Source: Tequatrovirus BCH953P4. From it: DNA of 64,000 nt. Below the pieces are notes generated by a model. The model made no database searches and was not told the origin of the DNA. It saw only the letters and a list, made by a program, of their open reading frames with translations. This document shows, one piece after another, positions 4,399 to 63,233 of the stretch. The stretch lies in the sequence record OZ035789.1. The stretch is one strand, 5' to 3'. Both the position numbers and the translations under genes were made by a program. Numbering within the stretch: the first letter of the stretch is position 1; the number at the start of each line of letters is the position of its first letter.

Positions 4399-5034
4399 TC
4401 ACAGTTCAGATGCTACAGTGATTACAGCTTCAATGTTTTCTGCCGAGCGTTTAATGTCAAGATACACATTACCGTTTTTAGCGATTTTACATGACATTCC
4501 GATGTCAGTAAATTTCTGAATATGATGTTCCATCATTTTATATCCAAAAATTCGCATATTTCCATTGTTGTTAATTTCAAAATTACGAATTCCGTGAGTG
4601 CGTTTTTCTAAAATGGCAAGATAATTACTGCGATAAGTTTCAACCTTTTTAAGAACAAATCCATTTTCATCTAAAAGTTTTAACATGAGGTCTTTATCTT
4701 CTTCCATATCAGAAGTAATCTCGCGAGCTTTACGAGTTGCTCGTTTTTTCAGCAGTTCCGGAGCATTTTCCTGTGCGTATAAAGTTGCTGCATTTGAAAT
4801 AATATCTTGCGCTTCGCCTGTAATGATTAATCCATCACCTGATTTCTCTACCAGGCCTTTTTTAATTAATACCCCAATATTACTATTAACTACTGCGTTA
4901 CCTAAATCTGGATGCACCTCACGAACTTCTGCAGCTGTAATGAAATCTTTCTTAGCAATGGTAATTAAAATCGCAGCAGTTTTTTCATTCAGAACATCGT
5001 TAGAAGCTTTGATGATGTAAGTTACTTTAGACAT
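4399..5034 (-). CDS. motA: Middle-transcription activator MotA (211 aa)
   Basis: ORF track; sequence recognised as T4 MotA; SD GGAG upstream. Confidence 0.93.
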   Translation of the reverse strand: MSKVTYIIKASNDVLNEKTAAILITIAKKDFITAAEVREVHPDLGNAVVNSNIGVLIKKGLVEKSGDGLIITGEAQDIISNAATLYAQENAPELLKKRATRKAREITSDMEEDKDLMLKLLDENGFVLKKVETYRSNYLAILEKRTHGIRNFEINNNGNMRIFGYKMMEHHIQKFTDIGMSCKIAKNGNVYLDIKRSAENIEAVITVASEL

Positions 5035-5075
5035 TTTCTAATCTCCGTAATTCTGTATCAGTAGTTGATAGTTGT

Positions 5076-5105
5076 ATAGTACCACAGTATGCTTTGGTTG
5101 TAAAC
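5076..5105 (-). promoter_or_regulatory. Early promoter upstream of motA (-35 GTTTACA, 17 bp, extended -10 TGGTACTAT)
   Basis: Plus strand ATAGTA-CCA (5076-5084) and TGTAAA (5099-5104). Confidence 0.6.
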
Positions 5106-5136
5106 CGTTTTGTGAAAAAAATTTTGAAATAAAAAA

Positions 5137-5156
5137 GGGAGAGCCAAGGCTCTCCC
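5137..5156 (-). terminator. Rho-independent terminator after gene 52 / 52.1-like ORF
   Basis: GGGAGAGCC/GGCTCTCCC stem followed on the minus strand by a T-run. Confidence 0.6.
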
Positions 5157-6636: not shown

Positions 6637-6773
6637 AAATTTACCATACTAGTGAATGTAGTGCCATAATAACATCAGAAATGAAAAGCACGACTTGAAT
6701 TAATCCGAACATTACTCCATAATATAGTGCTATTAATAAAATAGCAAGGGCTAATGAATAGCCCAAGATTTTC

Positions 6774-6983: not shown

Positions 6984-7094
6984 CTAATACGCCCTGAGCT
7001 GATGCTTGCAAAATACTGAAGTTTCTCCAGTTATTACTGTTCCGATGCATAAAAAGAACCAACAGAAAAAGGCTATACCGTGAACAAATTTCAT
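6984..7094 (-). CDS. ac-like small membrane peptide (36 aa)
   Basis: Hand translation MKFVHGIAFFCWFFLCIGTVITGETSVFCKHQLRAY; resembles the neighbouring ac product. Confidence 0.3.
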   Translation of the reverse strand: MKFVHGIAFFCWFFLCIGTVITGETSVFCKHQLRAY

Positions 7095-8035: not shown

Positions 8036-8250
8036 TTTACGCCATTCCAAATTGTTTCAACTACGGATTTTAAACCATTTTGATGAATATCAATTCCGAC
8101 TACTGTCATCAAATAGATTCCAACTACAACTGAACCTAAGGCAAAAATCAGCATGAAAATGAATAAAGCCGGAAAAATATTATCGAAAAACCATTCAATA
8201 AATGTAAAAGCACTGCGTTTACGCTTCATATTTTCCTCACATAAATCCAA
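8032..8250 (-). CDS. Small membrane protein (72 aa)
   Basis: ORF track; hydrophobic. Confidence 0.45.
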   Translation of the reverse strand: MDLCEENMKRKRSAFTFIEWFFDNIFPALFIFMLIFALGSVVVGIYLMTVVGIDIHQNGLKSVVETIWNGVK

Positions 8251-8350
8251 AGTAAACGTTTAATACATCAATCATTAAAACGATTGGGAATATACTCAAA
8301 ACTAATAGTATTATAACTACATTCCATATAGCTTTAATAATCTTTTTCAT
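8237..8350 (-). CDS. Small membrane peptide (37 aa from ATG at 8350)
   Basis: Track ORF trimmed: its N-terminus is translated promoter/leader; ATG 8350 has SD GGAGG. Confidence 0.4.
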   Translation of the reverse strand: MKKIIKAIWNVVIILLVLSIFPIVLMIDVLNVYFGFM

Positions 8351-8378
8351 TTTCTGTTCCTCCGTAGTTGATAGGGTA

Positions 8379-8408
8379 ATAATACCACAGAGGAACAGTC
8401 TTGTAAAC
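8379..8408 (-). promoter_or_regulatory. Early promoter (-35 GTTTACA, 17 bp, -10 TGGTATTAT)
   Basis: Plus strand ATAATA-CCA (8379-8387) and TGTAAAC (8402-8408). Confidence 0.6.
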
Positions 8409-8593
8409 AACTTTTTTAAAAATATTCGTAATAAATGTGAATACCAACTACTACCGCTGAAACCTGTGCAACCCACCACGCACAAGCAATAAGTATAGAA
8501 TTCATAATTTTCATAATAACCTCATTACAAAAGTAAATGTTAAACAAATTACTGGAATACTAATTAACCAAACAAAACACCACCACAGTGAAC

Positions 8594-8857
8594 TCATAGC
8601 TCAATCTCAATGATTTCAAGATTATTTTCTTTAATAGCTTTCTTTAAATCATCGTAAATAAGAACTTCCCAAGAATTGTTTAAATCACCATTCAACAAAC
8701 GCTCTTGTTGCAATTTATCAGTAAGATATGGTTGATCTGATTCATATTTAGACAATCCCAATGAAATAAATGATGTTGCATCATCAATTTCAGAATATTG
8801 TACATAAACAAATTCACCTGTGATTTTATGTTTAACATAAAAGAATTTAAATTTCAT
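8594..8857 (-). CDS. Hypothetical protein (87 aa)
   Basis: ORF track; ATG with SD GGAGG. Confidence 0.55.
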   Translation of the reverse strand: MKFKFFYVKHKITGEFVYVQYSEIDDATSFISLGLSKYESDQPYLTDKLQQERLLNGDLNNSWEVLIYDDLKKAIKENNLEIIEIEL

Positions 8858-8884
8858 TTTTGTTCCTCCGTAGTTGATAGGGTA

Positions 8885-8914
8885 ATAGTACCACGGTCCT
8901 TGTGGTATGTAAAC
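8885..8914 (-). promoter_or_regulatory. Early promoter (-35 GTTTACA, 17 bp, -10 TGGTACTAT)
   Basis: Plus strand ATAGTA-CCA and TGTAAAC; near-identical cassette to 8379-8408 and 63204-63233. Confidence 0.6.
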
Positions 8915-12936: not shown

Positions 12937-13140
12937 TTAATTCATATTACGCTTAATAACTTCAGCAACTTCTAGTAATTCATCTTTAGTTGCGGTGTCG
13001 GATTGAATTTTATCTCTAATATCTTTAAAGCGGTTTTTAAATTCTTCGGCTTCTCCCATATCGAAAAAGCGTTGAATGATTCTATATTCTCGATGAACTG
13101 CTTTATCAAAAAGTTCTAAATTTACTTTATATGATTTCAT
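12937..13140 (-). CDS. rIIA.1-like small protein (67 aa)
   Basis: ORF track; ATG start; position between 39 and rIIA. Confidence 0.55.
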
Positions 13141-13165
13141 TCCAATATCCTCATTTGCCCAATTA

Positions 13166-13195
13166 ATTATACCACATCCTTGTGGTAAAGTAAAC
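13166..13195 (-). promoter_or_regulatory. Early promoter upstream of rIIA.1/rIIA (-35 TTTACT, 17 bp, -10 TGGTATAAT)
   Basis: Plus strand ATTATA-CCA (13166-13174) and AGTAAA (13189-13194); overlaps gene 39 stop. Confidence 0.6.
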
Positions 13196-15015
13196 TACTG
13201 ACTCATCCATTCTTTGCGAAGGTCAGCATTATCTCCCATGAGCATTTCAAAAAGCTCTTTCCAGTTCTCAGGAAGTTTAACAACATCATATACTGGATTT
13301 TGAATCATTTCACGATATTCAGATTTTTCCAAAGAGCCAAGTCCTTTAATATAACGGATGCTATGTTTAGGTAGAGCATCTTTGGCACTCTCATATTCAG
13401 CGACTGTATAAAACCATTCTTGTTTTTTACCGACCTGAGCGATGATTACAGGAGTTTTGACAAAGCGAATTCGTCCTTGCTCAAACAATTCTGGCCAATT
13501 ACTAAAAAACCCGAGCAGAGAAGGATAAATGCTTCCTAAACCATCATGGTCAGCATCGGTCATAATAGCAATATTATGATAATTCAAGTTTTCAGCTTTT
13601 TCACCAAGAACTAATCCAGTGATTGCGCAAATATCAAATAGTTCTTTGTTTTTAAGCATATCTGCATATGACATACCCCAACTGTTGAGAACTTTACCAC
13701 GCAATGGATAACCACCATGAAGTTCTTTATCACGAACATCAATAAGATACCCGATAGCAGAATCACCCTCAGTCAAGAAAAGAGTAGTGTCAGCATCTTT
13801 ACCGCAAAGATTCGCTTTGATATGTTTATGAACTTTAGCTTTAGAAGCCTTTTTAGCTGCTTTAGTTTCTGCTGCTTTTTCTGCTGCCAATTTACGAGCC
13901 AAGGCAGCTTCAATAATTGGCATCAAAATAGCTTCATTATTTAGAATAGCGCGTGAAATCTTTTTAGCATCAAGCTGAATATGACTACGAATTTCGCCAA
14001 ATGGAGAAGTCAAACGCTCTTTAGTTTGAGAATCAAATCGCATGTTTTTCATATCACGAACAAACATAACGATAGTCAAACATTCTTTAACACGTGCTTT
14101 AGTTACATCAATTTTAAACTTACGTTTGATTTGTGGAATAAGGTCTTCACAAATATCATCCATAACACAGTCAATGTGATGGCCACCATTCTTAGTGTGA
14201 ATGTTATTCACATAAGTTAATTGACGAAAACCATCCGGTGAACGACCAACCGCAATAGAACAATTTTCTTGTTCCTGAACAATAGCATGCTCATCATATT
14301 GGCGTGCATATTTCTTAAAATTGCCCTGAACCTTTTTACCATTAAAGGTAAATTGAATATCAGGATAAACTACTGCAAGTGTCTGGAGACGATCTAGTGT
14401 AATGTCAAGATAAACTTGTGACAGCTCATTAGTTTCAAATGACATAAAATCAGGAATGAAAGTAACACGAGTTCCTTTCCATTTTCCAGGAATAGTTTCC
14501 CATGATTTATTTTCCATGCCATTTGAACAACGAACTACAATATTATTTTGACCATCACCAGTTTCACCGACAAACATCACAGAAAAAATGTTTGTCAAAC
14601 TAGAACCAACACCATTCATACCGCCGGTGACGCGTTCTTTATCATCACCGAAGTTACCACCTGCTTTTGGAATAGTCCACGCAGCAACAGGACCAGGAAT
14701 TTCTTCACCTGTAGGTGTTTTAACCATCGCCTGTGGAATACCACGACCGTTATCTTCAACTGTTACTTGATTGTTTTTAATAGTAACATTAATTTTATTT
14801 GCGAATTTAAACTTAGTACGAATACCTTCATCTACTGAGTTATCGATAATTTCATCAATAAGCTTAACAAGACCAGGTACATACTGAACACTTTCCCATT
14901 TACCAAACAGAAAGCGCTCATGCATTTCATTAGCAGAAGAGCCAATGTACATGCCGCTACGCTTTTTGATATGTTCAATATCGCTCAGAATTTTAATTTC
15001 ATTCTTAATCATCAC
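13195..15015 (-). CDS. 39: DNA topoisomerase II large subunit gp39, continuous 606-aa ORF
   Basis: ORF track; ATG start; no interruption where T4 has the gene 39/60 split. Confidence 0.9.
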   Translation of the reverse strand: MMIKNEIKILSDIEHIKKRSGMYIGSSANEMHERFLFGKWESVQYVPGLVKLIDEIIDNSVDEGIRTKFKFANKINVTIKNNQVTVEDNGRGIPQAMVKTPTGEEIPGPVAAWTIPKAGGNFGDDKERVTGGMNGVGSSLTNIFSVMFVGETGDGQNNIVVRCSNGMENKSWETIPGKWKGTRVTFIPDFMSFETNELSQVYLDITLDRLQTLAVVYPDIQFTFNGKKVQGNFKKYARQYDEHAIVQEQENCSIAVGRSPDGFRQLTYVNNIHTKNGGHHIDCVMDDICEDLIPQIKRKFKIDVTKARVKECLTIVMFVRDMKNMRFDSQTKERLTSPFGEIRSHIQLDAKKISRAILNNEAILMPIIEAALARKLAAEKAAETKAAKKASKAKVHKHIKANLCGKDADTTLFLTEGDSAIGYLIDVRDKELHGGYPLRGKVLNSWGMSYADMLKNKELFDICAITGLVLGEKAENLNYHNIAIMTDADHDGLGSIYPSLLGFFSNWPELFEQGRIRFVKTPVIIAQVGKKQEWFYTVAEYESAKDALPKHSIRYIKGLGSLEKSEYREMIQNPVYDVVKLPENWKELFEMLMGDNADLRKEWMSQ

Positions 15016-16164: not shown

Positions 16165-16282
16165 TACAATTTCCTCATTAATTGAACATTGGAGAGATGC
16201 GTTTCAGAAGAGTATCAGCACCTTTAACGAATTATCCATTTTATTCTTCAAGTTGTTTTCTGTATCAGTAGTTGATATTGAT

Positions 16283-16312
16283 ATAGTACCATAATCAACT
16301 ACTGATGTATAT
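16283..16312 (-). promoter_or_regulatory. Early promoter with weak -35 (TATACA), -10 TGGTACTAT lying between 13-bp inverted repeats
   Basis: Plus ATAGTA-CCA (16283-16291); inverted repeat 16264-16276 / 16294-16306. Confidence 0.4.
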
Positions 16313-16336
16313 AGTTTTATGAAAAAATTTTAAACC

Positions 16337-17449: not shown

Positions 17450-17950
17450 TTATCTCATTTCAATAAAATCTACGAGTTCAGCATGCGATTTGCGGAACAT
17501 TACTTGGTGCCCGCCAATGATAACTTGGTCATCTGGCACTTCGTATACAGCAAGATAAAATCCTTTAGAAGCTAATTCTTCACGCTCTTCTCGTGTGAAC
17601 CATCTCATCATATCATATTCACTAGCGAAAGCAAAATGATAAAGACCTATAAACCATCCTGGAATATGATATTCTACTCCAACATAATCTTTCTTGAACT
17701 TAGTATTAATTACTATATTAGCGTTTTTAACTAATAGTTTATCTTCGTGTGGTAAAGGAATTCTTTTATTATTATCGCTATGATGCATAAAATTAGGTCT
17801 GTCATAACCTACGTGTAATAGCCACTCTTCGCTCCATGAATCTATTATACTCCTATACGGCGTTATTTGAACACAAAGATTTCGACGTATTGTTATAGCA
17901 TCTTCATAATCAAGAATACTAAACGATGATTCAACACGATAAATTTTCAT
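17450..17950 (-). CDS. Hypothetical protein (166 aa from ATG at 17950)
   Basis: Track ORF trimmed because its first 13 codons overlap the promoter; ATG 17950 has SD GAGGA. Confidence 0.5.
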   Translation of the reverse strand: MKIYRVESSFSILDYEDAITIRRNLCVQITPYRSIIDSWSEEWLLHVGYDRPNFMHHSDNNKRIPLPHEDKLLVKNANIVINTKFKKDYVGVEYHIPGWFIGLYHFAFASEYDMMRWFTREEREELASKGFYLAVYEVPDDQVIIGGHQVMFRKSHAELVDFIEMR

Positions 17951-17977
17951 TTTATTATCCTCAGTAGCTATGGTGTT

Positions 17978-18007
17978 ATAATACCACAACTAACCGAGGA
18001 AGTAAAC
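17978..18007 (-). promoter_or_regulatory. Early promoter (-35 TTTACT, 17 bp, -10 TGGTATTAT)
   Basis: Plus ATAATA-CCA (17978-17986) and AGTAAA (18001-18006). Confidence 0.55.
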
Positions 18008-22531: not shown

Positions 22532-23151
22532 TCAACTACCTCAATATCATACACTTTAAATGTTCCAAATGAATCGTGTAATTTTTCTTTTGAAATAGAA
22601 GTTATTTTATACTTTCCAATTGGAATCATCCATTCTTGTTCACGTACAATCATCATTAAGTTATCAGTACGTTCTGAATCTAATCCATCAGTATCTTCAT
22701 ATGTATACTTAAACTCAGTATTAGGAGAAGAAAGTATAATATCGCTGATATGGTCAGAATAATTAAAAGCTTTATCAGTTTTTAAGCGAAATATTATTTC
22801 AGTGAAATACTCAACATAAGAAAAACCACATGCTGTGTGCAAACTAGTAGTAAATGAATCTACCCTGTTCGTTGAAAACACCTCTCCAACTTGTAAATCT
22901 TTAATGAGTTCTTTTGTCGATTTTGATATACCACGATATAACTGATAAGGTGATTTAGTTAAATGCTTTTTAATGATTTTATTCAACTGCTGATGAAGAG
23001 CTTCATTCTTTTTGGCTTCCATACATTGCCAAAGAACAGATTGCTCAAAGTCAGTAAATTTTTCACAGACCTTTTTATACATATCATATTGAAAATCAAC
23101 GCTTTCAGCTTTTATAGATAACTGTTCAACATCTGCAAGATTAATAATCAT
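22528..23151 (-). CDS. modB: ADP-ribosyltransferase ModB (207 aa)
   Basis: ORF track; paralog of ModA with the same motifs; T4 ModB length. Confidence 0.7.
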   Translation of the reverse strand: MIINLADVEQLSIKAESVDFQYDMYKKVCEKFTDFEQSVLWQCMEAKKNEALHQQLNKIIKKHLTKSPYQLYRGISKSTKELIKDLQVGEVFSTNRVDSFTTSLHTACGFSYVEYFTEIIFRLKTDKAFNYSDHISDIILSSPNTEFKYTYEDTDGLDSERTDNLMMIVREQEWMIPIGKYKITSISKEKLHDSFGTFKVYDIEVVE

Positions 23152-23177
23152 GATAGCCTCCGTATACTTCAGAAGCT

Positions 23178-23207
23178 ATCATATCATCGTTAGAAAGGAA
23201 AGTAAAC
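23178..23207 (-). promoter_or_regulatory. Early promoter upstream of modB (-35 GTTTACT, 17 bp, -10 TATGAT)
   Basis: Plus ATCATA (23178-23183) and AGTAAA (23201-23206). Confidence 0.55.
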
Positions 23208-25044: not shown

Positions 25045-25250
25045 TACAAAAAGCCTCTTTTGAATTCAACTTGCTTTTCACCATAATCATATCGAATCTC
25101 TGCATTAAATTCGACAGAACCATCTGCGTACATCATAAATGAATGCACAACAACTTCTGTAGACCATGGTTGCAATTCATATTTCTTCATTACATGCCGT
25201 GAAATGATAATATCTAAATCTTCATTCGGTTTAATCCAACGATTTAACAT
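25044..25250 (-). CDS. Hypothetical protein (68 aa)
   Basis: ORF track; ATG start; served by the promoter at 25277-25306. Confidence 0.5.
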   Translation of the reverse strand: MLNRWIKPNEDLDIIISRHVMKKYELQPWSTEVVVHSFMMYADGSVEFNAEIRYDYGEKQVEFKRGFL

Positions 25251-25276
25251 AGTGCTCTCCTCTATAAGATAATTCT

Positions 25277-25306
25277 ATTATACCATACTCATTTTGGAAA
25301 GTAAAC
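25277..25306 (-). promoter_or_regulatory. Early promoter (-35 GTTTACT, 17 bp, -10 TGGTATAAT)
   Basis: Plus ATTATA-CCA (25277-25285) and AGTAAA (25300-25305). Confidence 0.6.
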
Positions 25307-25320
25307 CGGTAAAATGAAAA

Positions 25321-25342
25321 AAGGACTCCCGAAGGAGTCCTT
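25321..25342 (-). terminator. Rho-independent terminator after soc
   Basis: GGACTCC-CGAA-GGAGTCC stem-loop followed on the minus strand by TTTTTT. Confidence 0.7.
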
Positions 25343-26239: not shown

Positions 26240-27579
<1,340 letters not shown>

Positions 27580-27604
27580 TATATCATCCTCAGCAATTTA
27601 TTTT

Positions 27605-27634
27605 ATAATACCATAACAAGCTGAGAAAGTAAAC
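27605..27634 (-). promoter_or_regulatory. Early promoter driving the 186-aa ORF and dam (-35 GTTTACT, 17 bp, -10 TGGTATTAT)
   Basis: Plus ATAATA-CCA (27605-27613) and AGTAAA (27628-27633). Confidence 0.6.
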
Positions 27635-27678
27635 AAATTTATGAAATTTGTGATAAATATTAATTTAAAGGAGGACAT

Positions 27679-30095: not shown

Positions 30096-30237
30096 TGAAA
30101 GCTTTAACTAATGCTTTATTAACTTCAGCATACTGAGTAGTAGCCCATTGAACGTCATCTTTCATCATTGTGGTTTCTTTAGTAAACATGCTTTCATTCT
30201 TAAACCACCCCATAAAAACTACCTTTACCAATTCCAT
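30055..30237 (-). CDS. dmd: Dmd, antitoxin against RnlA/LsoA (60 aa from ATG at 30237)
   Basis: Sequence MELVKVVFMGWFKNESMF... recognised as T4 Dmd; track N-terminal extension rejected. Confidence 0.8.
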   Translation of the reverse strand: MELVKVVFMGWFKNESMFTKETTMMKDDVQWATTQYAEVNKALVKAFIDDKKVCEVDCRG

Positions 30238-30266
30238 AACAATCTCCACATTTAACCAACAAGACT

Positions 30267-30296
30267 ACTATACCATAGTCTTGTCAGCTTGTAAAC
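30267..30296 (-). promoter_or_regulatory. Early promoter upstream of dmd (-35 GTTTACA, 17 bp, -10 TGGTATAGT)
   Basis: Plus ACTATA-CCA (30267-30275) and TGTAAA (30290-30295). Confidence 0.6.
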
Positions 30297-35952: not shown

Positions 35953-36333
35953 TCACTTAGTCAAATTTTTTACACATGAATTATAAGAATTCACTACATA
36001 CTCCATCGGAGCATTTTTACCAGTACGCCATTGGTAATTATTAGCCCAATTAGCCCAAATTTCGGCGCAGTAGTTTTCAATTTTTTCTTCGCGTGTAATT
36101 ACATCAGAATTACGATATGCTTGAGCAGATTCATCTGGACGAATAGCTTCGTCAAAATTCGCCTGCATTTGTTCTACTGTTTGCTTTGGAGCTTCTTTAT
36201 AACACTTGACATTAGGATTATAAAATTTGCTTGAACAGTTTACAATTTTTCCTGCATCAGACTGATTTACTACCGGTCCTTGAGCTACACAACCAGTAAG
36301 ACCTAATGCAATAACCAAAATAGCGATTTTCAT
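35953..36333 (-). CDS. Putative lipoprotein, imm.1-like (126 aa from ATG at 36333)
   Basis: Signal peptide MKIAILVIALGLTGC; track start is TTG, trimmed to ATG with SD GGAG. Confidence 0.55.
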   Translation of the reverse strand: MKIAILVIALGLTGCVAQGPVVNQSDAGKIVNCSSKFYNPNVKCYKEAPKQTVEQMQANFDEAIRPDESAQAYRNSDVITREEKIENYCAEIWANWANNYQWRTGKNAPMEYVVNSYNSCVKNLTK

Positions 36334-36367
36334 TTCATTCTCCAAATCCGTATTAGTTGATAGTTGT

Positions 36368-36397
36368 ATAGTACCATGGAAGAACAGTCTTGTAAAC
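36368..36397 (-). promoter_or_regulatory. Early promoter upstream of imm.1/imm (-35 GTTTACA, 17 bp, -10 TGGTACTAT)
   Basis: Plus ATAGTA-CCA (36368-36376) and TGTAAA (36391-36396). Confidence 0.6.
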
Positions 36398-39269: not shown

Positions 39270-39287
39270 AAGGGGCCGAAGCCCCTT
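39270..39287 (-). other. Intercistronic stem-loop between regA and 43
   Basis: AGGGGC-CGAA-GCCCCT. Confidence 0.4.
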
Positions 39288-39289
39288 GC

Positions 39290-39658
39290 TTAATTACCAA
39301 TCGTATATTTAGGAACGAGTTTCCATTCATGTTTTTGTTTAAAAGAAATAACTCGGAAGTTATTAGTTAAATCTTTCATAAAAGTTCTTTGACCAGGGAC
39401 GATTTCAATCAGTCCCCAATCTTCTAATAGCCATGCAATCGAATCACGACGAACTTCATCTTCTTCTGTCATTTCAACTTGGCGACCATCCATACGAAGC
39501 ATTTCTTTAAAATGAACGATATAGTATAGTCCTTTTTTCTGAAGAATATGACAGGACTGATACAGAACTTTATCTTTATTATTAGCAATTCCCATACGAG
39601 TCAAAGTTTCTTTTACTTTCAGAAAATCTTCAGGTTTTTTAAGAGTAATTTCAATCAT
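39290..39658 (-). CDS. regA: Translational repressor RegA (122 aa)
   Basis: ORF track; T4 RegA length; position. Confidence 0.85.
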   Translation of the reverse strand: MIEITLKKPEDFLKVKETLTRMGIANNKDKVLYQSCHILQKKGLYYIVHFKEMLRMDGRQVEMTEEDEVRRDSIAWLLEDWGLIEIVPGQRTFMKDLTNNFRVISFKQKHEWKLVPKYTIGN

Positions 39659-41235: not shown

Positions 41236-41922
41236 TTAAAAATCGTGGGTAGAATCAGCTTCAAGAGCTACCACATAATTCGCGTGTTCACCTTCAAATT
41301 TAGCAGCACCTTGTTTACCTTTTGCCCAGAGCAGAAGTTTATAATTTCCTGGTTGCATTTTCATATTTGCCATATTGATAATGAAATTAAATGTATTTTC
41401 ACCATCATAATCACCAAGAGTCAAAGAATATTTAACACGGGTCAGAGCAGAATCTTCTACTTTATTAAAACCGTTAATTACGATTTTACCTTCTTTTACT
41501 GTGATAGCAATTGTATCAATCTGCAGACCGCGAGATACACGCAACAGCTGTTGAAGGTCTTCAGCTTTAATTTCGGTAACAACAGATGCTACCGGGAATG
41601 GAATTGGTTTATTAGGAGCAACTACTGTACTCGGATCGGCTGCTGGCCAAAAAATTGTTGAGCGAGCATCAGCAATTTTAATATTTCCATCTTCTGATTG
41701 CGAAATTTCTGCATCATCATTAACTAGAGACAGAATACCGAGAAAACCGTTCAAATCGTAAATTGCTACATCAAAATCAATAACGTCAGAAATATTTGCT
41801 TCCGCATAAGTTGTACCATTAACTGCGCGAGTCATAATAAATTGACCGGATTTAAGCATAATACCGGAGTTAATAGTAGCGAAATTTTTCAAAATATTCA
41901 GTGTGTCTTTAGATAATTTCAT
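41236..41922 (-). CDS. 45: Sliding clamp gp45 (228 aa)
   Basis: ORF track; T4 gp45 length and sequence. Confidence 0.9.
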   Translation of the reverse strand: MKLSKDTLNILKNFATINSGIMLKSGQFIMTRAVNGTTYAEANISDVIDFDVAIYDLNGFLGILSLVNDDAEISQSEDGNIKIADARSTIFWPAADPSTVVAPNKPIPFPVASVVTEIKAEDLQQLLRVSRGLQIDTIAITVKEGKIVINGFNKVEDSALTRVKYSLTLGDYDGENTFNFIINMANMKMQPGNYKLLLWAKGKQGAAKFEGEHANYVVALEADSTHDF

Positions 41923-42806
41923 TTCAATTTCCTATTTACATAATAGTTAGACCAGGACCGTACAGCACCCTGATAAGATTCGTCGTTAAACCCATTAGCT
42001 ACTGCAATTTTACGAAATTTATTATAACTCGGTTTTCCGTAAGCATGCCATAAAGATTTTAATTCATCTTCATGTTCAATCCAAGTTCCTCTAGCTTTAG
42101 ATTTTCTAAATTTTGATTTGAATTCCGGTGAATTATTTCTAACAGTTGCTTGAATTGAAGCCCTCTGTCTTCTTTCAGCATTATTCCATAACTCTTTTTG
42201 AGATTTAGAAATTTTTGATTTTACACTTTCTGAATTCATTATATCACTAAACTTTTTAGCATAACTACAATCAAGATATTTCAATTTCATCTTATTTGAA
42301 AGTTTAAGCTTTTTCTCATCGGTCCAGTGATTCTTCATTGAATTAGATATTTTGTATTTTACGTCAGAACTATGTTTGTAACCTTTACGAATACCAACAT
42401 AATCGGGCGTAATTTCAGATTGCGAAAGCTTTACAATTTTTCCAGTTAAAACATTTTTATATGTTCCATATCCTTTAGCGCCAATTAAAGTATTTTCATC
42501 TGCGTATGCTTTATTAAAATATTTTATATTACTTTTTGCTTTAACTTTTAATTGAAAAAATCTTTCCAATTTTCTTGGATCTAATATAGTTTCAGCTAAA
42601 ATTTTGACGGTATATTTAGTGGTTTTAATAAGCTCAAAATATTCATCGCTATAACTCGATGACACGCTTCCAGTATAAATCTTTCCAGCTGAATCAATTA
42701 TATTTGTTCCATCGAAAATTGCGTCAATTTTCGAACCTATATAATAACATGGAAAAATATTTTTAGCTTCCCGCTCTGGAAAGCTAATAAGATATACTAA
42801 ATTCAT
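41919..42806 (-). CDS. GIY-YIG-like (Seg-type) homing endonuclease candidate (295 aa)
   Basis: ORF track; LVYLISF...CYYIGSK motif; basic repeat-rich C-terminus; 4-nt overlaps with rpbA and 45. Confidence 0.55.
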
Positions 42807-43444: not shown

Positions 43445-44161
43445 ATGAATTATAAACTAATTTATGAAAAGTTAATCTCTAATGCTAAATCTCGAAAACT
43501 TGATTGCTATACTGAATCTCATCACATTATACCACGCTGTTTAAATGGCAGCGATGATGCTTCAAACTTAGTAGATTTAACACCAGAAGAGCACTATGTA
43601 GCTCATCAACTTTTAGTAAAAATTTATCCTTCTGAACCAAAATTAGTATATGCTGCTAACATGATGACAGTTTCCACGAAATACGCTAAACGCAACAATA
43701 AAACTTTCGGTTGGATTCGTCGTAAACTCTGGGAAATAGAAAAGAACAAAGAATTCTCCCAGGAGACACGAAAGAAAATGTCTGATGCAGTAGCTAATAA
43801 AGCAAGACTAACTTGTCCTCATTGCGGTAAGTCTGGATTAAGCGGGAATATGAATCGTTGGCATTTTGATAACTGCCCAAATCACCCTAATCCTAAAGTT
43901 AGACCACCAATGTCTAAAGAACACAGAAATAATATCTCAAACGGGCTTAAAGCAATCGTTCTTGAAGAAACATCTTGCGAATTCTGCGGAATGATAGGCA
44001 AGAAATGCGTTATCGCAGCGCATAGAAATTTCTGCAAGAAAAATCCAAATGGACGCAAGAAAACTGAAAAGACTGGTACTTGCGTCCATTGTGGTAAAGT
44101 TACCACTTTCGGAAATTTATCAAGATGGCATAATGATAACTGTAAATATAAACCTAGCTAA
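43445..44161 (+). CDS. HNH homing endonuclease with three zinc-finger repeats (238 aa)
   Basis: ORF track; HHIIPRC...N...H HNH motif; repeats CPHCGKSG...RWHFDNC; opposite strand to all neighbours. Confidence 0.8.
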   Translation: MNYKLIYEKLISNAKSRKLDCYTESHHIIPRCLNGSDDASNLVDLTPEEHYVAHQLLVKIYPSEPKLVYAANMMTVSTKYAKRNNKTFGWIRRKLWEIEKNKEFSQETRKKMSDAVANKARLTCPHCGKSGLSGNMNRWHFDNCPNHPNPKVRPPMSKEHRNNISNGLKAIVLEETSCEFCGMIGKKCVIAAHRNFCKKNPNGRKKTEKTGTCVHCGKVTTFGNLSRWHNDNCKYKPS

Positions 44162-55037: not shown

Positions 55038-55069
55038 CTTCATCATTATATTCAGCATGAGTCGCAAAT

Positions 55070-55840
55070 TCATGCCCGTTTATATGAAACAACAAAATTT
55101 GGATAGTCCATAGATATGCAACGTTCTTTTATAGTGCTAGGATGAAAATTTAGCGCTTTAGCTGCTTCTATATAAGACGTATACTTAATACCGTCAACAA
55201 CCACATATTCAGGAACTTTATGAATAGTAGTCTTAATACTCAAAACAAGAGGATGAGTTTCGACTTCACTTTCAGTGCAATTTAAATATTCCGCTGCTTT
55301 TTTAAAACTTCTAAAAGTTTTATTTTTAAGCTTTATCGATACTTGTTTTTTACTTTTTCGACTATTGATATTATTTTGCACATGTTCCTTAGATCTTCCG
55401 TTTTTAGCATAATATTCAGCTACAGAAGATTTTATATTGTTTTTATGAGATTCGGATAACACTTTACCCTTATGAGCATCTCTTAATTTTTGAATATGTT
55501 CTTCAGTATCCGGATGCTTATAAAACTTTTTACCGCCTATGGATTTATTTAAACATTTTTTGCTATAAAAATATTTACGTATGACCTCTTCTTCATGTTT
55601 TAATGCATCTTTATAACTATCAAATGTTTTTAAAATTATCCATTTAGTAGGTGTATCAGTTTTTAAGCGTTCATTTATATACTTAGATGACGTTGTGTAA
55701 GTTTTCCAGTTTGTGGGCTTGTTTTTAATTGTTCTAAATTTTTTATAACCGATATAAATGTCGCCATTAGAAAACTTAACTAAGTATGTAAATGCGTCTT
55801 TATCTTTTATTTTAGTACAACGTCTTTTTATCCATTTCAT
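55070..55840 (-). CDS. Intron-encoded GIY-YIG homing endonuclease, I-TevII-like (256 aa)
   Basis: ORF track; AFTYLVKF...DIYIGY motif; located in the 3' part of the intron. Confidence 0.8.
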   Translation of the reverse strand: MKWIKRRCTKIKDKDAFTYLVKFSNGDIYIGYKKFRTIKNKPTNWKTYTTSSKYINERLKTDTPTKWIILKTFDSYKDALKHEEEVIRKYFYSKKCLNKSIGGKKFYKHPDTEEHIQKLRDAHKGKVLSESHKNNIKSSVAEYYAKNGRSKEHVQNNINSRKSKKQVSIKLKNKTFRSFKKAAEYLNCTESEVETHPLVLSIKTTIHKVPEYVVVDGIKYTSYIEAAKALNFHPSTIKERCISMDYPNFVVSYKRA

Positions 55841-55869
55841 TGTTTCACCTCGTATTCATAAGATAATCT

Positions 55870-55877
55870 TATTTATA
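55870..55877 (-). promoter_or_regulatory. Late promoter TATAAATA inside the intron, upstream of the endonuclease ORF
   Basis: Plus TATTTATA, about 30 nt upstream of ATG 55840. Confidence 0.6.
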
Positions 55878-56088
55878 CAAGATGACTGCTGCATGTCGCC
55901 ATGCAGATTAGACTATATCTTCATCTTTCGATGCCGGCCGTTTCGAATAGCATTAGCTTCTATTCTACACCGCTACATTCATCACGGTTAGTCGTTAGGC
56001 ATTTAGTTCAAAAGAACATTTAGCACGGGATTGTCTACTAGAGAGGTTCCCCGTTTAGACCGGTTTTACATGAGCCTGAATTAAATTA

Positions 56089-56626
56089 ACTCATACGCCT
56101 GAAACGCGTCGTATACATCTTTTTCTGTTTTAGATTGAGCATAATTCAACGCATCAGCGATTTGCCATTTTTCTGCATCCTCAATATGTTTTGCATAGGT
56201 GCGTTTAACATAAGGAGAAAGTACTTTATCTACATTAGCAAAAGTCGTTCCGCCATATTGGTGAGAAGCAACCTGTGCAGTAATTTGTGCCATAATTGCA
56301 GTAGCAACACCGATTGATTTAGGAGTTTCAATCTGTGCATTACCAAGCTTAAATCCGTTCTCAAGCATTCCTTTTAAATCTACTAAACAGCAATTAGTAA
56401 ATGGAAGAGCAGGGGAATAATCAATATCGTGGAAATGAATAATTCCGCTTTCATGCGCTTTCATAATAAAAGACGGGACCATATTTTTGGCAATGTGTTT
56501 AGACACAATACCAGCCATAAGGTCCCGTTGAGTTGGAAAAACACGAGAATCTTTGTTAGCATTCTCGTTTAAAAGGTCTTTATTAGTTTTATGAATCAAT
56601 CCTTCAATTTCTTTTTCAATTGTCAT
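56089..56626 (-). CDS. nrdD: Anaerobic ribonucleotide reductase NrdD, exon 1 (5' splice junction approximate)
   Basis: Track ORF 56081-56626; 5' splice site placed after the U of GAGU by analogy with T4. Confidence 0.6.
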
Positions 56627-59275: not shown

Positions 59276-60198
59276 TTCAATACCTCAATAGCATTACGTA
59301 AACCATTTGCTTTTGCATTAAGAGCTTTTAACAATTTGGTGTGTTCTGCAATTTGGGCTTCAACTTCAATCAAACGAGCATTGAGATATTCGCGTTCTTC
59401 ACTCAGATTATCAACCTTTTCTACTTTAGGTTCTTTTACAACTGGCTTATACGTATTAGGGTTCTTCAGTTTAATTAGAATGCGTGAACTGTATAACATT
59501 GAACCATTATCTTCGGTTTCATCATACATTTCTACTACGTCCATGATTTTTAACATCATGCGAAGTTTATAAGACAACGAACGAATAGTTTTGTTGTGCT
59601 TATTAATTTCTCTAGCTGTCATGGTGCCGAGATTACGTGAGTAATAATAAGGAACCTGGATATTAATTAATACTGATGAACCACCTGGCTTGTGTGTTAC
59701 TTCATCAGCAATAACCCAGTCCTTAACATGAACTGTATTTGTACGGTCATCGCCAGCGGTAAACAGTTTGCGAGCATGCTTAAAAAGCATATTCACTTGA
59801 GTATTGAATTGACAAGCAAATTTATCAGCAAATTTAGTTTCAGGAATGGTAGATAACCAATCAGCCAAATGGGTCTTTTTAACATCGTTAATAATAGTAA
59901 ATTCAACCAAATCAGTTATAGATGTCGCAGTTTTAATGAAGCTCGGCTTCATAAAGTTTTTAATGTTATCACGAGCTACAGTAGAAGATAACATACGAGA
60001 ACGTTTAAACCATTCAAGCAAATTGCCCAATGAATGAGAATAGGCGTTCTGAGTATCTTTACAGATATGATTTTCCTGGCCAACATATTGAAGGAAATCA
60101 CGAAGAATATTATTGATTACTGCTCTGTGTCCTATCTGATAATTACGGTGTTTAGTAATAAGACTATCAAAATAATCAATATAATGTTTACGAGTCAT
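59272..60198 (-). CDS. Hypothetical protein (308 aa from ATG at 60198) with C-terminal coiled coil
   Basis: Track ORF trimmed because the promoter overlaps the extension; ATG 60198 has SD GAGGAG. Confidence 0.55.
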   Translation of the reverse strand: MTRKHYIDYFDSLITKHRNYQIGHRAVINNILRDFLQYVGQENHICKDTQNAYSHSLGNLLEWFKRSRMLSSTVARDNIKNFMKPSFIKTATSITDLVEFTIINDVKKTHLADWLSTIPETKFADKFACQFNTQVNMLFKHARKLFTAGDDRTNTVHVKDWVIADEVTHKPGGSSVLINIQVPYYYSRNLGTMTAREINKHNKTIRSLSYKLRMMLKIMDVVEMYDETEDNGSMLYSSRILIKLKNPNTYKPVVKEPKVEKVDNLSEEREYLNARLIEVEAQIAEHTKLLKALNAKANGLRNAIEVLK

Positions 60199-60226
60199 AT
60201 TAATCTCCTCAGTAGAAAGTAAGAAC

Positions 60227-60256
60227 ATTATACCACATCCTTGTGGCAAAGTAAAC
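60227..60256 (-). promoter_or_regulatory. Early promoter (-35 TTTACT, 17 bp, -10 TGGTATAAT)
   Basis: Plus ATTATA-CCA (60227-60235) and AGTAAA (60250-60255); near-identical to the cassette at 13166-13195. Confidence 0.6.
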
Positions 60257-62647: not shown

Positions 62648-63175
62648 TTATGCGAGTACCGTCTTTAACCGTTCTTCAAATTTCCGAATAGTGTTCTGGC
62701 GTTCAGCTCTTTGCTTTTTGTAAGTTTCAATACGCTCTGAAATGAGAGTGTATCGTTCATTTACTGATTCTTTCATAAAATCAGGAATTTCACGAGAAGC
62801 TTTAATCTCGTCAAATTTATCAATAACAGCTTGCTCTTCAGCAATTAAGTTATCATACATCAAAATATCTTTCTTGATGAACTCAATATCTTCTTGAGTT
62901 ACACGAGATAATTTAGATGCTTTATCCTTTTTGTACTGTTCGTTAGTATCACGAGACCAGTGTAATGTACGATTTTTATTCGTATTCTTGTAAATTTCTA
63001 CAATACCAATCTCATCAATAATAACGATCCAATTCCAACGAGATTTGTAAATTTGCCCTCCGTCAACCGTGATTTCACCTCCGATTGAGATGTCATTAAA
63101 GAACTTGCTTTGTGCTTCAGATTTAAATTTACCATCGTTGTAATTTACCAGGTTGAAAATATCTTTAGCGTTCAT
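62648..63175 (-). CDS. Hypothetical protein (175 aa from ATG at 63175)
   Basis: Track ORF trimmed; its N-terminus is translated promoter/leader; ATG has SD GGAGG. Confidence 0.5.
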   Translation of the reverse strand: MNAKDIFNLVNYNDGKFKSEAQSKFFNDISIGGEITVDGGQIYKSRWNWIVIIDEIGIVEIYKNTNKNRTLHWSRDTNEQYKKDKASKLSRVTQEDIEFIKKDILMYDNLIAEEQAVIDKFDEIKASREIPDFMKESVNERYTLISERIETYKKQRAERQNTIRKFEERLKTVLA

Positions 63176-63203
63176 TTTGTGTTCCTCCGTAGTTGATAGT
63201 TGT

Positions 63204-63233
63204 ATAGTACCACAGAGGAACAGTCTTGTAAAC
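63204..63233 (-). promoter_or_regulatory. Early promoter (-35 GTTTACA, 17 bp, -10 TGGTACTAT)
   Basis: Plus ATAGTA-CCA (63204-63212) and TGTAAA (63227-63232). Confidence 0.6.

Follow-up and report, generated by a model that had tools for sequence, protein, structure and literature searches.

Copies of an early promoter fused to a short leader are scattered through a 64,000-nucleotide (nt) stretch of Tequatrovirus BCH953P4 (sequence record OZ035789.1; the whole stretch is called the window here), two of them between positions 8350 and 8914 in the denB-ndd.4 region. They raise the question of whether such cassettes are modules that drive the shuffling of small genes in T4-type phages, as a preliminary description of this DNA had proposed, or whether they resemble one another for other reasons. 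We consider it highly probable that the repeats are immediate-early T4-like promoters fused to short leaders, within a scheme in which the copies exchange sequence among themselves, rearrangements around them occur mainly at microhomologies, and a few copies mask the Shine-Dalgarno (SD) sequence of their own gene. This account draws on the anatomy of the sequence, orthology with T4, structures predicted in silico, compensatory changes across lineages and the positions of junctions.

Judged by its sequence, the window is a T4-like (Tequatrovirus) early region. The 5-kb stretch around the focal cassettes is 94-98% identical to hundreds of Tequatrovirus genomes, and rIIA, rIIB, denB, ndd and ac are present. 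GC skew is negative from ~2 kb onward, and the window genes lie on the minus strand. BLAST comparison shows collinearity with T4 from 160.0 to 168.9 kb and then from 1 to ~49.9 kb, broken by ~13 indel or replacement intervals.

We searched the window for GTTTAC-N15-TGNTAYNAT with at most one mismatch and recovered 16 matches where 0.39 were expected, all on the minus strand and in the same direction as the genes. The elements reported in the preliminary description were present on this strand at all of the sites it listed: the -35 GTTTACA, a 17-bp spacer from TTTACA to TAYTAT, an extended -10 TGGTA(C/T)TAT, and then an SD and ATG. At 13195 and 60256 the -35 reads GTTTACT. UP-element-like A/T tracts (e.g., AAAATTTTTCA(C/T)AAA) lie upstream of the promoters. 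The composite layout of a stop codon within an AT-rich tract followed by early promoter, SD and ATG is found here, with 2-16 nt between stop codon and -35 at 8408, 8914, 18007, 29793 and 63233 and an overlap at 13195, 30296 and 60256. The promoters occupy positions orthologous to those of T4 at motA (5105), ndd.4 (8408), the post-denB slot (8914; ndd.6 in T4), rIIA.1 (13195), the 39.2/39.1 intergenic region (16313), motB.2 (18007), srd (21872), modB (23207), mrh.2 (25306), sp (29793), dmd (30296), imm.1 (36397), 55.6 (52556) and nrdC.8 (63233), and we name them accordingly (Pndd.4, PmotA and so on; Table 1). The T4 GenBank and RefSeq records annotate no promoter features.

The window promoters share their consensus (UP, GTTTAC, 17 bp, TGn, TAnnAT), genomic positions and orientation with the classical T4 early promoters, reportedly described by Liebig and Ruger in 1989. 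Nothing essential differs from that set; the window adds a promoter at 27634 with its open reading frame (ORF), and PnrdC.4 has moved onto nrdC.3. T4 early promoters form a "UP/-35/TGn/-10" class whose consensus reaches beyond the sigma70 elements (PMC2988021). Host sigma70 RNA polymerase would fire the cassettes immediately after infection, from a layout that runs from a UP-like A/T tract through GTTTAC(A/T), the 17-bp spacer, TGn and TAYNAT to a leader of ~20-35 nt, a GGAG or GAGGA SD and the ATG.

Cassettes of this kind have been named promoter early stem-loops (PeSLs) in phages RB49 and phi1, where they consist of an AT-rich region, an early promoter, a stem-loop and an SD/ATG (Arbiol et al. 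2010, PMC2839356). The concept was extended to T4 and PST, with the consensus TTTACW-N17-TAYWAT and the ndd.4/ndd.5 region as worked example (Comeau et al. 2014, PMC4122927). The match to PeSLs put forward in the preliminary description is therefore sound, since sigma70-type early promoters with 5' leaders are published for this very ndd region, and it restates that concept rather than offering a new one. Like PeSLs, the window cassettes have an AT tract that holds the upstream stop codon, a strong sigma70-type early promoter, an SD and ATG at the 3' side, and repeats across the early region. PeSL stems, too, may sit between or over the -35 and -10, and PeSL crossovers were mapped between the -10 and the SD/ATG. 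Unlike PeSLs, only 2 of the 17 window copies have a terminator-type stem upstream, and no window indel has cassettes at both ends; the strongest window stems use the SD as their 3' arm, a point that neither PeSL paper takes up. The cassettes are thus already known, and the use of the spacer against the SD at a few early promoters may be the only possibly new element.

Because they combine textbook T4 biology with a published concept, the cassettes matter mainly for annotation, where they mark the true starts of tiny ORFs and explain spurious N-terminal extensions. The extensions "LFLCG.I.LSTTEE" are real in-frame artefacts ("LFLCGIITLSTTEEQK-M" and "LFLCGTIQLSTTEEHK-M"), which arise because a mechanical ORF caller begins at a TTG within ..GTTGTTTACA...

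Some of the promoters share more than the generic -35 and -10 hexamers. The 27-nt leader TATTACCCTATCAACTACGGAGGAACA recurs without a mismatch at 8355-8381 and 8861-8887 (0 expected), the spacers at 8408 and 63233 are identical, and the leader core CTATCAACTA has five exact copies, all at the five cassettes named in the preliminary description, which overlooked a sixth copy with one mismatch (16269-16278) as well as ten more early promoters of the same class. Near-identity, as had been claimed for all five, is confined to 8408 and 63233 (92% from -35 to ATG). Other pairs range from 57 to 81% (8408/8914 81%, 36397/63233 81%, 5105 against the others 66-73%), against a background of 52-76% among unrelated early promoters in the window that the 5105 copy barely exceeds. 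Three of the five copies have the leader ending GGAGGAACA..AAAATG, which 5105 and 36397 lack.

The cassettes are mosaics of two spacer types and two leader types. Spacer type A (AAGACTGTTCCTCTG) occurs at 8408, 63233 and 36397, the 8408 spacer being 100% identical to that at 63233 and 80% identical to that at 36397, and type B (..CCACAAGGA..G) occurs at 8914, 13195 and 60256. Leader type 1 (TACCCTATCAACTAC) is found at 8408 and 8914, and type 2 (ACAACTATCAACTA) at 5105, 36397 and 63233. Six of the 17 copies (PmotA, Pndd.4, the post-denB promoter, P39.1, Pimm.1 and PnrdC.8) form a sub-family. We attribute their likeness beyond the consensus to extra sequence that would be functional (the initial transcribed region, the SD and some hairpins) and also to a swapping of sequence between copies, by ectopic recombination or gene conversion, that would yield mosaics.

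Alignment across phages indicates that cassette copies demonstrably exchange sequence. The TACCC/ACAAC block just after the -10 and the alternatives TACTAT/TATTAT and ACAG/ACAC all segregate at the Pndd.4, post-denB and PnrdC.8 loci. The Pndd.4 locus is of type 2 in sutha and in two other relatives (L013 and L038), and the denB-proximal locus is of type 1 only in the window, six other phages having the other leader type. At a distance of 55 kb, the PnrdC.8 locus of relative L018 has a copy that matches the Pndd.4 cassette of the window at every position from -35 to ATG. Recurrent point mutation is an implausible source of a five-base block, which argues for ectopic conversion between paralogous cassettes, in a direction that we infer. 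Separately, a cassette-only match in record H65 was considered as a horizontal transfer and rejected, as H65 is a partial Tequatrovirus genome that matches through its paralogous PnrdC.8 cassette.

Do the cassettes also govern gene gain and loss? The preliminary description matched them to the PeSL cassettes proposed to drive gene shuffling. That their main significance lies in such shuffling, with pairs of cassettes recombining to excise or insert the small ORFs between them, we regard as rather unlikely for the window. Experiments in RB49 and phi1 demonstrated PeSL mini-circles whose crossovers fall between the -10 and the SD/ATG (PMC2839356), and a T4/PST exchange in the ndd region was ascribed to PeSLs (PMC4122927). 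Three window indels have one end in or at a cassette, the block polymorphisms are common to paralogous cassettes, and a 186-amino-acid (aa) ORF moves with an early-promoter cassette in two lineages. However, the assertion that cassettes flank exactly the variable small-ORF regions was not supported: a cassette is found within 30 nt of only 3 of 27 block boundaries relative to T4 (1.25 expected, p=0.13) and of 2 of 22 relative to RB14 (0.93 expected, p=0.24). Cassettes never stand at both ends of an indel, the second end in the three resolved cases always being an 8-10-nt microhomology (AAAATGAAA, ATCACAAA or ACTCGTAA), and the 506-bp interval that separates the focal pair is missing from none of the ~490 relatives covering this stretch. 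PmotA, PrIIA.1, Pimm.1 and most other cassettes lie in fully collinear DNA, and most of the other indels consist of homing-endonuclease genes or unrelated small ORFs (in T4, mobA/60.1, segF, segA and mobC).

T4 recombines at any 6-10-bp microhomology (PMC9391042), and every resolved indel junction in the window likewise falls on an 8-10-nt direct repeat. Such recombination needs no promoter cassette, and cassettes only offer longer and more numerous repeats at gene starts, where a deletion or insertion would sometimes have one of its ends. Rearrangement in general would be driven by T4 microhomology recombination together with homing endonucleases, not by cassette-by-cassette exchange. The small number of boundaries at cassettes, the homing endonucleases and the microhomologies thus point to cassettes as occasional junctions rather than the frame of the variable regions. 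This tempers the idea that PeSLs drive shuffling in T-even phages, leaving mutual exchange and an occasional single junction. At one indel (RB32ORF047c, present in RB14 and absent from the window) the junction lies beside a GGGGC-cgaa-GCCCC hairpin (39272-39293), and terminator hairpins rather than promoters may mark some junctions.

The denB-to-ndd.4 interval, aligned in the window, T4, T2, RB14, UFV09, sutha and fPS-2, illustrates this limited role. Comparison of flanking genes with relatives bore out the cassette as a boundary on one side: the variable post-denB slot starts in the leader, but its right junction is not a cassette. The slot holds an 8-codon remnant (MKIAEIEL) in T4, RB32ORF266c in T2, ORF266c plus ORF269c in RB14 and UFV09, and one of three divergent ORF269c alleles in the window, sutha and fPS-2. 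On the left, the junction lies in the leader, with ATCAACT on one side and the SD/ATG on the other, the same location to which Arbiol et al. assigned the crossovers of mini-circles (PMC2839356). The right junction consists of the microhomology AAAATGAAA and the conserved 3' end GAGATTGAACTATGA, overlapping the ndd.6 start. The 87-aa ORF that fills the slot in the window is absent from T4 and T2, and RB14 and UFV09 have a divergent allele with an extra ORF (RB32ORF266c) before it.

This ORF has at least three alleles with ~55-60% nucleotide identity in mid-gene and conserved 5' (ATGAAATTTAAATT) and 3' (GAGATTGAACTATGA) ends, a pattern that would be expected for allele replacement by recombination in the ends. 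The T4 remnant MKIAEIEL* (~6997-7030), located between the post-denB leader and ndd.6 with an ATGA overlap, is the deletion scar of the ORF266c/ORF269c genes found in RB14 and the window. In T4, the annotated ndd.4 (42 aa, 6637-6765; window 8237-8350) begins at an upstream in-frame ATG created by a C-to-T change in the leader (CTACGG to CTATGG), which places the GGAGGA SD within the coding sequence. All other phages start five codons later, and the T4 start is probably mis-annotated.

Two further loci have one junction at a cassette. The window lacks nrdC.4 (60179-60256), which was deleted between copies of the repeat ACTCGTAA located just after the start codons of nrdC.4 and nrdC.3. The deletion begins 3 nt after the ATG, and as a result nrdC.3 now stands behind the early cassette of nrdC.4; the upstream region of nrdC.3 that was replaced has TATAAAT and no GTTTAC in T4 and RB14. 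The second locus is the module inserted at 27106-27647, which is absent from T4 and RB14 and begins at the edge of the UP element. Its 186-aa ORF (27019-27579) is restriction-endonuclease-like, with an invariant D72...E85-x-K87 motif and weak, sub-threshold Pfam matches to DpnII, a GATC enzyme, and only 2-3 nt separate its end from dam. A 59%-identical relative is likewise linked to a D12 Dam methylase and is preceded by a canonical UUCG-hairpin PeSL. The ORF occurs in 162 phage records, and is called "hypothetical protein" in all 10 annotated rows sampled; T4 keeps only its last ~29 codons.

We then examined the structures that RNA crossing these promoters could adopt. At Pndd.4, the spacer and TGn (CUGUUCCUCUGUGGU) are complementary to the leader and SD (ACUACGGAGGAACAG) over 15 bp, including two G.U pairs, with the -10 in the loop. 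The predicted folds of read-through RNA have free energies (dG) of -23.2 kcal/mol at Pndd.4 (z -4.86), -20.2 kcal/mol at PnrdC.8 (z -5.06) and -23.7 kcal/mol at PmotB.2 (z -5.15), and none of 200 shuffles was as good in any of the three cases. Helices at these promoters are 14-17 bp long, and composition-preserving shuffles give z -6 to -7 for the arm duplexes (Pndd.4: dG -26.0, z -7). On the long transcript the predicted helix includes the SD and/or the AUG, and the geometry places the start of the cassette's own transcript downstream of the 5' arm, which is made of spacer and TGn and lies upstream of the -10. The SD is predicted to be unpaired with a probability of 0.00 at Pndd.4 and 0.01 at PnrdC.8 on promoter-containing RNA, versus 0.82 on own-promoter RNA. 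Promoter-spanning stems are also significant at Pdmd (z -4.84), where a 21-bp hairpin has an outer stem pairing the -35 UUUACA with UGUGGA of the SD, at the 39.1 promoter (z -4.81), where a 13-bp perfect inverted repeat flanks the -10, and at PmodB (z -3.60). The significant within-promoter stems are thus those at 8408, 63233, 18007, 30296, 16322 and 23207. Those at 8914 and 13195 are weak and non-significant, and folding revealed no stem inside the cassettes at 5105, 36397, 52556, 21872, 29793 and 2643. A local hairpin of spacer type B, UACCAC..GUGGUA at 8914 and 13195, was rejected (z -0.1 and -0.5; its variants are without compensation).

Strong stems occur only where the stop codon lies at most 25 nt from the -35 (6 of 10 promoters versus 0 of 7; 17 promoters, one-sided Fisher p=0.017). 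In 7 of 9 cases the sense RNA exceeds the antisense in stability by 7-11 kcal/mol, an excess that is due to G.U pairs and argues for RNA structure over a DNA cruciform or templated quasi-palindrome.

Compensatory changes preserve the pairing in Tequatrovirus, in Mosigvirus (RB69) and in a third lineage. At PmotB.2, where the stems of the three lineages are out of register and RNAalifold on a MAFFT alignment was therefore unusable, we compared folds per lineage and cognate with cross-lineage duplex energies. The arms are UUCCUCGGUUAG / CUACUGAGGA in the T4 type (z -5.2), UUCUCCUCAUG / CAUGAGGAGAA in the lineage of relatives L026-L031 (CAUG/CAUG, z -5.4) and UUCUCCUCUGGUU / AACCAGAGGAGAA in RB69 (CUGG/CCAG, z -5.7), with several positions altered on both arms between lineages. 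Cognate spacer:SD duplexes reach -16 to -26 kcal/mol versus -9 to -12 for cross-lineage pairings. PnrdC.8 has two sequence solutions, the one in relative L020 being AUCUCCAGUAG / CUACUGGAGGU. The Pndd.4 cassette was aligned with its T4 orthologue and 12 more natural copies; across 12 natural copies 98.3% of cells are paired, and the sole internal changes are C/U exchanges opposite G.

These observations suggest a way in which the promoters could insulate their genes. The stop codon of the preceding gene lies 7 nt (Pndd.4), 2 nt (PnrdC.8) and 6 nt (PmotB.2) from the start of the promoter; because this leaves only 2-7 nt, there is no terminator in between, and upstream transcripts must cross these promoters. 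RNA begun upstream would hold both arms and fold the SD into the 14-17-bp helix, so that the gene, we propose, would be translationally silent on it, while RNA begun at the cassette's own promoter would lack the 5' arm and be translatable. The pairing therefore probably masks the ribosome-binding site on read-through RNA at Pndd.4, PnrdC.8 and PmotB.2, a model in which the transcription starts, the read-through and the translational effect are inferred. Whether this extends to a T-even class, in which spacer and TGn double as an anti-SD arm and each promoter-ORF unit is translationally insulated and expressed from its own promoter only, seems to us evenly balanced. Its members would be these three promoters and possibly also Pdmd, PmodB and P39.1. 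If so, the cassettes would be context-independent expression modules, which would explain why they tolerate relocation and packing 2-7 nt behind another ORF.

T4 offers precedents in e, soc, 49 and I-TevI, where a promoter inside a hairpin that masks the ribosome-binding site frees translation (PMC3014915). There, as proposed here, the SD or AUG is hidden on upstream transcripts and a promoter within or after the 5' arm gives an arm-less, translatable RNA. Unlike those genes, whose late or middle promoters delay expression, the window promoters are immediate-early and sigma70-dependent, and the 5' arm is the promoter's own spacer and TGn; here the effect would be to insulate the gene from upstream transcription or to confine its expression to the early period. 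An early-promoter version of this masking does not appear in PMC3014915, in PMC2839356 (where "translation" occurs 0 times) or in PMC4122927, though older T4 literature may describe the hairpins. Working as predicted, the arrangement would be an early-promoter version of the T4 trick of hiding ribosome-binding sites on long transcripts, and a compact natural design for context-insulated gene cassettes, useful to phage engineering.

Data on the RegB nuclease fit this SD-masking reading. RegB, with S1, targets early-gene SDs of the form GG*AGRAYARAA, and in vivo it cuts the T4 motB.2 SD (GGAU) and, "moderately", that of nrdC.8 (PMC1702504). Structure protects RNA from RegB, and modB RNA is structured (Durand 2006; PMC1702504). 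The window leaders resemble RegB targets in having GGAG or GGAU SDs followed by A-rich sequence, though GGAGGAACAGAA, with A,C at positions 7-8, deviates from the consensus. Once folded, read-through RNA would be protected against RegB, and perhaps such units are shielded from it as well.

The discoverers of PeSLs assigned such stem-loops a different role, as terminators or attenuators of upstream transcripts, and this we judge improbable for the promoter-spanning stems. One RB49 PeSL stem-loop lowers downstream lacZ like a strong terminator, and stems between or overlapping the -35 and -10 are among those listed (PMC2839356). Genuine hairpin-plus-T6 terminators do stand directly upstream of PmotA (5105) and Pmrh.2 (25306), and only there; their stem sequences differ from GGGC-cgaa-GCCC, and PmotA is the sole canonical stem-loop-then-promoter layout among the cassettes first listed. 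The promoter-spanning stems, by contrast, lack the sequence features of terminators, which are seen only in those two separate upstream hairpins. The loops of the three long stems are 8-15 nt and are followed by A-rich sequence (AAAAUG) instead of a U-tract, the lack of which makes them poor terminators. Their 3' arm is the SD itself, they sit where a gene's own promoter must still be able to transcribe the gene downstream, and the compensatory changes follow the SD sequence specifically. The cassettes had also been said to abut CGAA-tetraloop hairpins in several cases, but a strict search for GC-stem cgaa/ttcg tetraloops put the nearest GGGC-cgaa-GCCC hairpin at least 641 nt from any cassette. 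This family, with C(UUCG)G tetraloops on the mRNA, follows genes such as rIIB and denB.1. Its members are classical T4 intercistronic stabiliser or terminator hairpins, distinct from the promoter cassettes.

T4 is a classic system for templated quasi-palindrome mutation. It is very improbable that the likeness is nothing but the long T4 early-promoter consensus with a common SD, without family, exchange or hairpin function, and that the complementarity arose incidentally from pyrimidine-rich spacers and purine-rich SDs or from quasi-palindrome correction in DNA: the high background identity (with PmotA barely above it) and the several spacers that start TTTCC or TTCTC would suit this, but the spacer matches of 100% and 80% lie in a region that sigma70 does not read, the leader identity of the two focal copies and the five exact cores exceed a consensus, the shuffle z values are strong, the stems reach well past the SD with double-sided changes, and G.U pairs give a sense-strand-specific structure that DNA-templated correction would not be expected to leave.

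Several observations weigh against the scheme of exchange, microhomology and masking that we prefer. In neither comparison are junctions significantly enriched at cassettes (p=0.13 and 0.24). Double-sided covariation is absent within the Pndd.4 locus, where pattern scans of IMG/VR and metagenomes yielded 5 and 6 loci, variation too low for such covariation. SD masking is clear in three or four of the 16 window promoters and in one of nine in RB69, scanned with spacers of 16-18 bp because a strict 17 bp left out most promoters. By folding, the SD-masking stem is missing at the family members PmotA and Pimm.1, and it is also missing from the PnrdC.8 version of relatives L016 and L019. For PmotB.2, own-promoter RNA is predicted to expose the SD only modestly more (0.31 to 0.44). 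Pyrimidine-rich spacers beside GTTTAC could partly reflect a need of the promoter, their complementarity to purine-rich SDs then being a coincidence, and the RNA biology of the cassettes is predicted throughout.

Table 1. Positions of cassettes, hairpins and associated genes in the window.
Feature	Position (strand)	Details
Pndd.4 cassette	8348..8408 (-)	-35 at 8402-8408, spacer A, TGGTATTAT, leader 1, SD GGAGGA, ATG 8348-8350
Pndd.4 hairpin, 5' arm	8384..8398 (-)	CUGUUCCUCUGUGGU; spacer + TGn
Pndd.4 hairpin, 3' arm	8354..8368 (-)	ACUACGGAGGAACAG; leader + SD of ndd.4
Cassette after denB	8855..8914 (-)	GTTTACA, spacer B, TGGTACTAT, leader 1, ATG 8855-8857 of the 87-aa ORF
PnrdC.8 cassette	63173..63233 (-)	92% identity to Pndd.4
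PnrdC.8 hairpin	63209-63222 and 63180-63193 (-)	5' arm; 3' arm (leader + SD)
PmotB.2 cassette	17948..18007 (-)	17-bp hairpin; SD GAGGA
PmotB.2 17-bp hairpin	17983-18000 and 17958-17974 (-)	5' arm (spacer + TGn); 3' arm (leader + SD GAGGA)
PmotA cassette	5032..5105 (-)	Leader 2, SD GGAG, ATG of MotA (T4 motA annotation)
Terminator-type hairpin	5131..5156 (-)	GGGAGAGCC-uugg-GGCUCUCCC + T6; just upstream of PmotA; dG -19
Pimm.1 cassette	36331..36397 (-)	Spacer A variant, leader 2, SD GGAG; no significant hairpin
Sixth family member, T4 39.2/39.1 intergenic promoter	16240..16331 (-)	Degenerate -35 TATACA, TGGTACTAT, leader ATATCAACTACTGAUACAG
PrIIA.1 promoter	13138..13195 (-)	Spacer B; only the promoter part common with the family
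nrdC.4-type cassette	60196..60256 (-)	Drives nrdC.4 in RB14; fused to nrdC.3 in the window
Pmrh.2	25246..25341 (-)	Upstream terminator GGACUCC-uucg-GGAGUCC + T6; canonical PeSL layout
Pdmd	30233..30296 (-)	21-bp hairpin around the -10
PmodB	23147..23207 (-)	14-bp hairpin from the -10/transcription start region to SD + AUG
Variable 87-aa ORF	8594..8857 (-)	RB14ncORF269c-like, PHROG 2390, function unknown; slot begins in the cassette leader
ndd.6-like (8511-8597) and ndd.5-like (8416-8514)	8416..8597 (-)	Between the focal cassettes; conserved in all seven phages compared
Inserted module	27106..27647 (-)	541 nt; early promoter (-35 at 27634) + 186-aa ORF; bounded by 8-nt repeat ATCACAAA
GGGC-cgaa-GCCC hairpins	9555, 9787, 15068, 39272, 41220, 47469, 51682; 1059 on + strand	UUCG tetraloops on the transcript

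Other observations on the window concern introns and mobile genes. Rfam covering the whole window (1-64000), including the stretch collinear with the T4 nrdD region, returned no family at gathering score; in T4 that region contains a group I intron with I-TevII (~55043-56091 of the window; absent from RB14). The gene for the topoisomerase large subunit is unsplit (window 13543-13595), like "60plus39" of RB14, and the 1.1-kb insertion of T4 (the gene 60 bypass region, 60.1 and mobA) is absent. Between 45/rpbA and 45.2/46, the window carries two homing-endonuclease genes (41919-42806 on the minus strand and 43445-44161 on the plus strand; PHROG 655; HNH) that are present in neither T4 nor RB14, and the second of them is encoded on the strand opposite to every neighbour.

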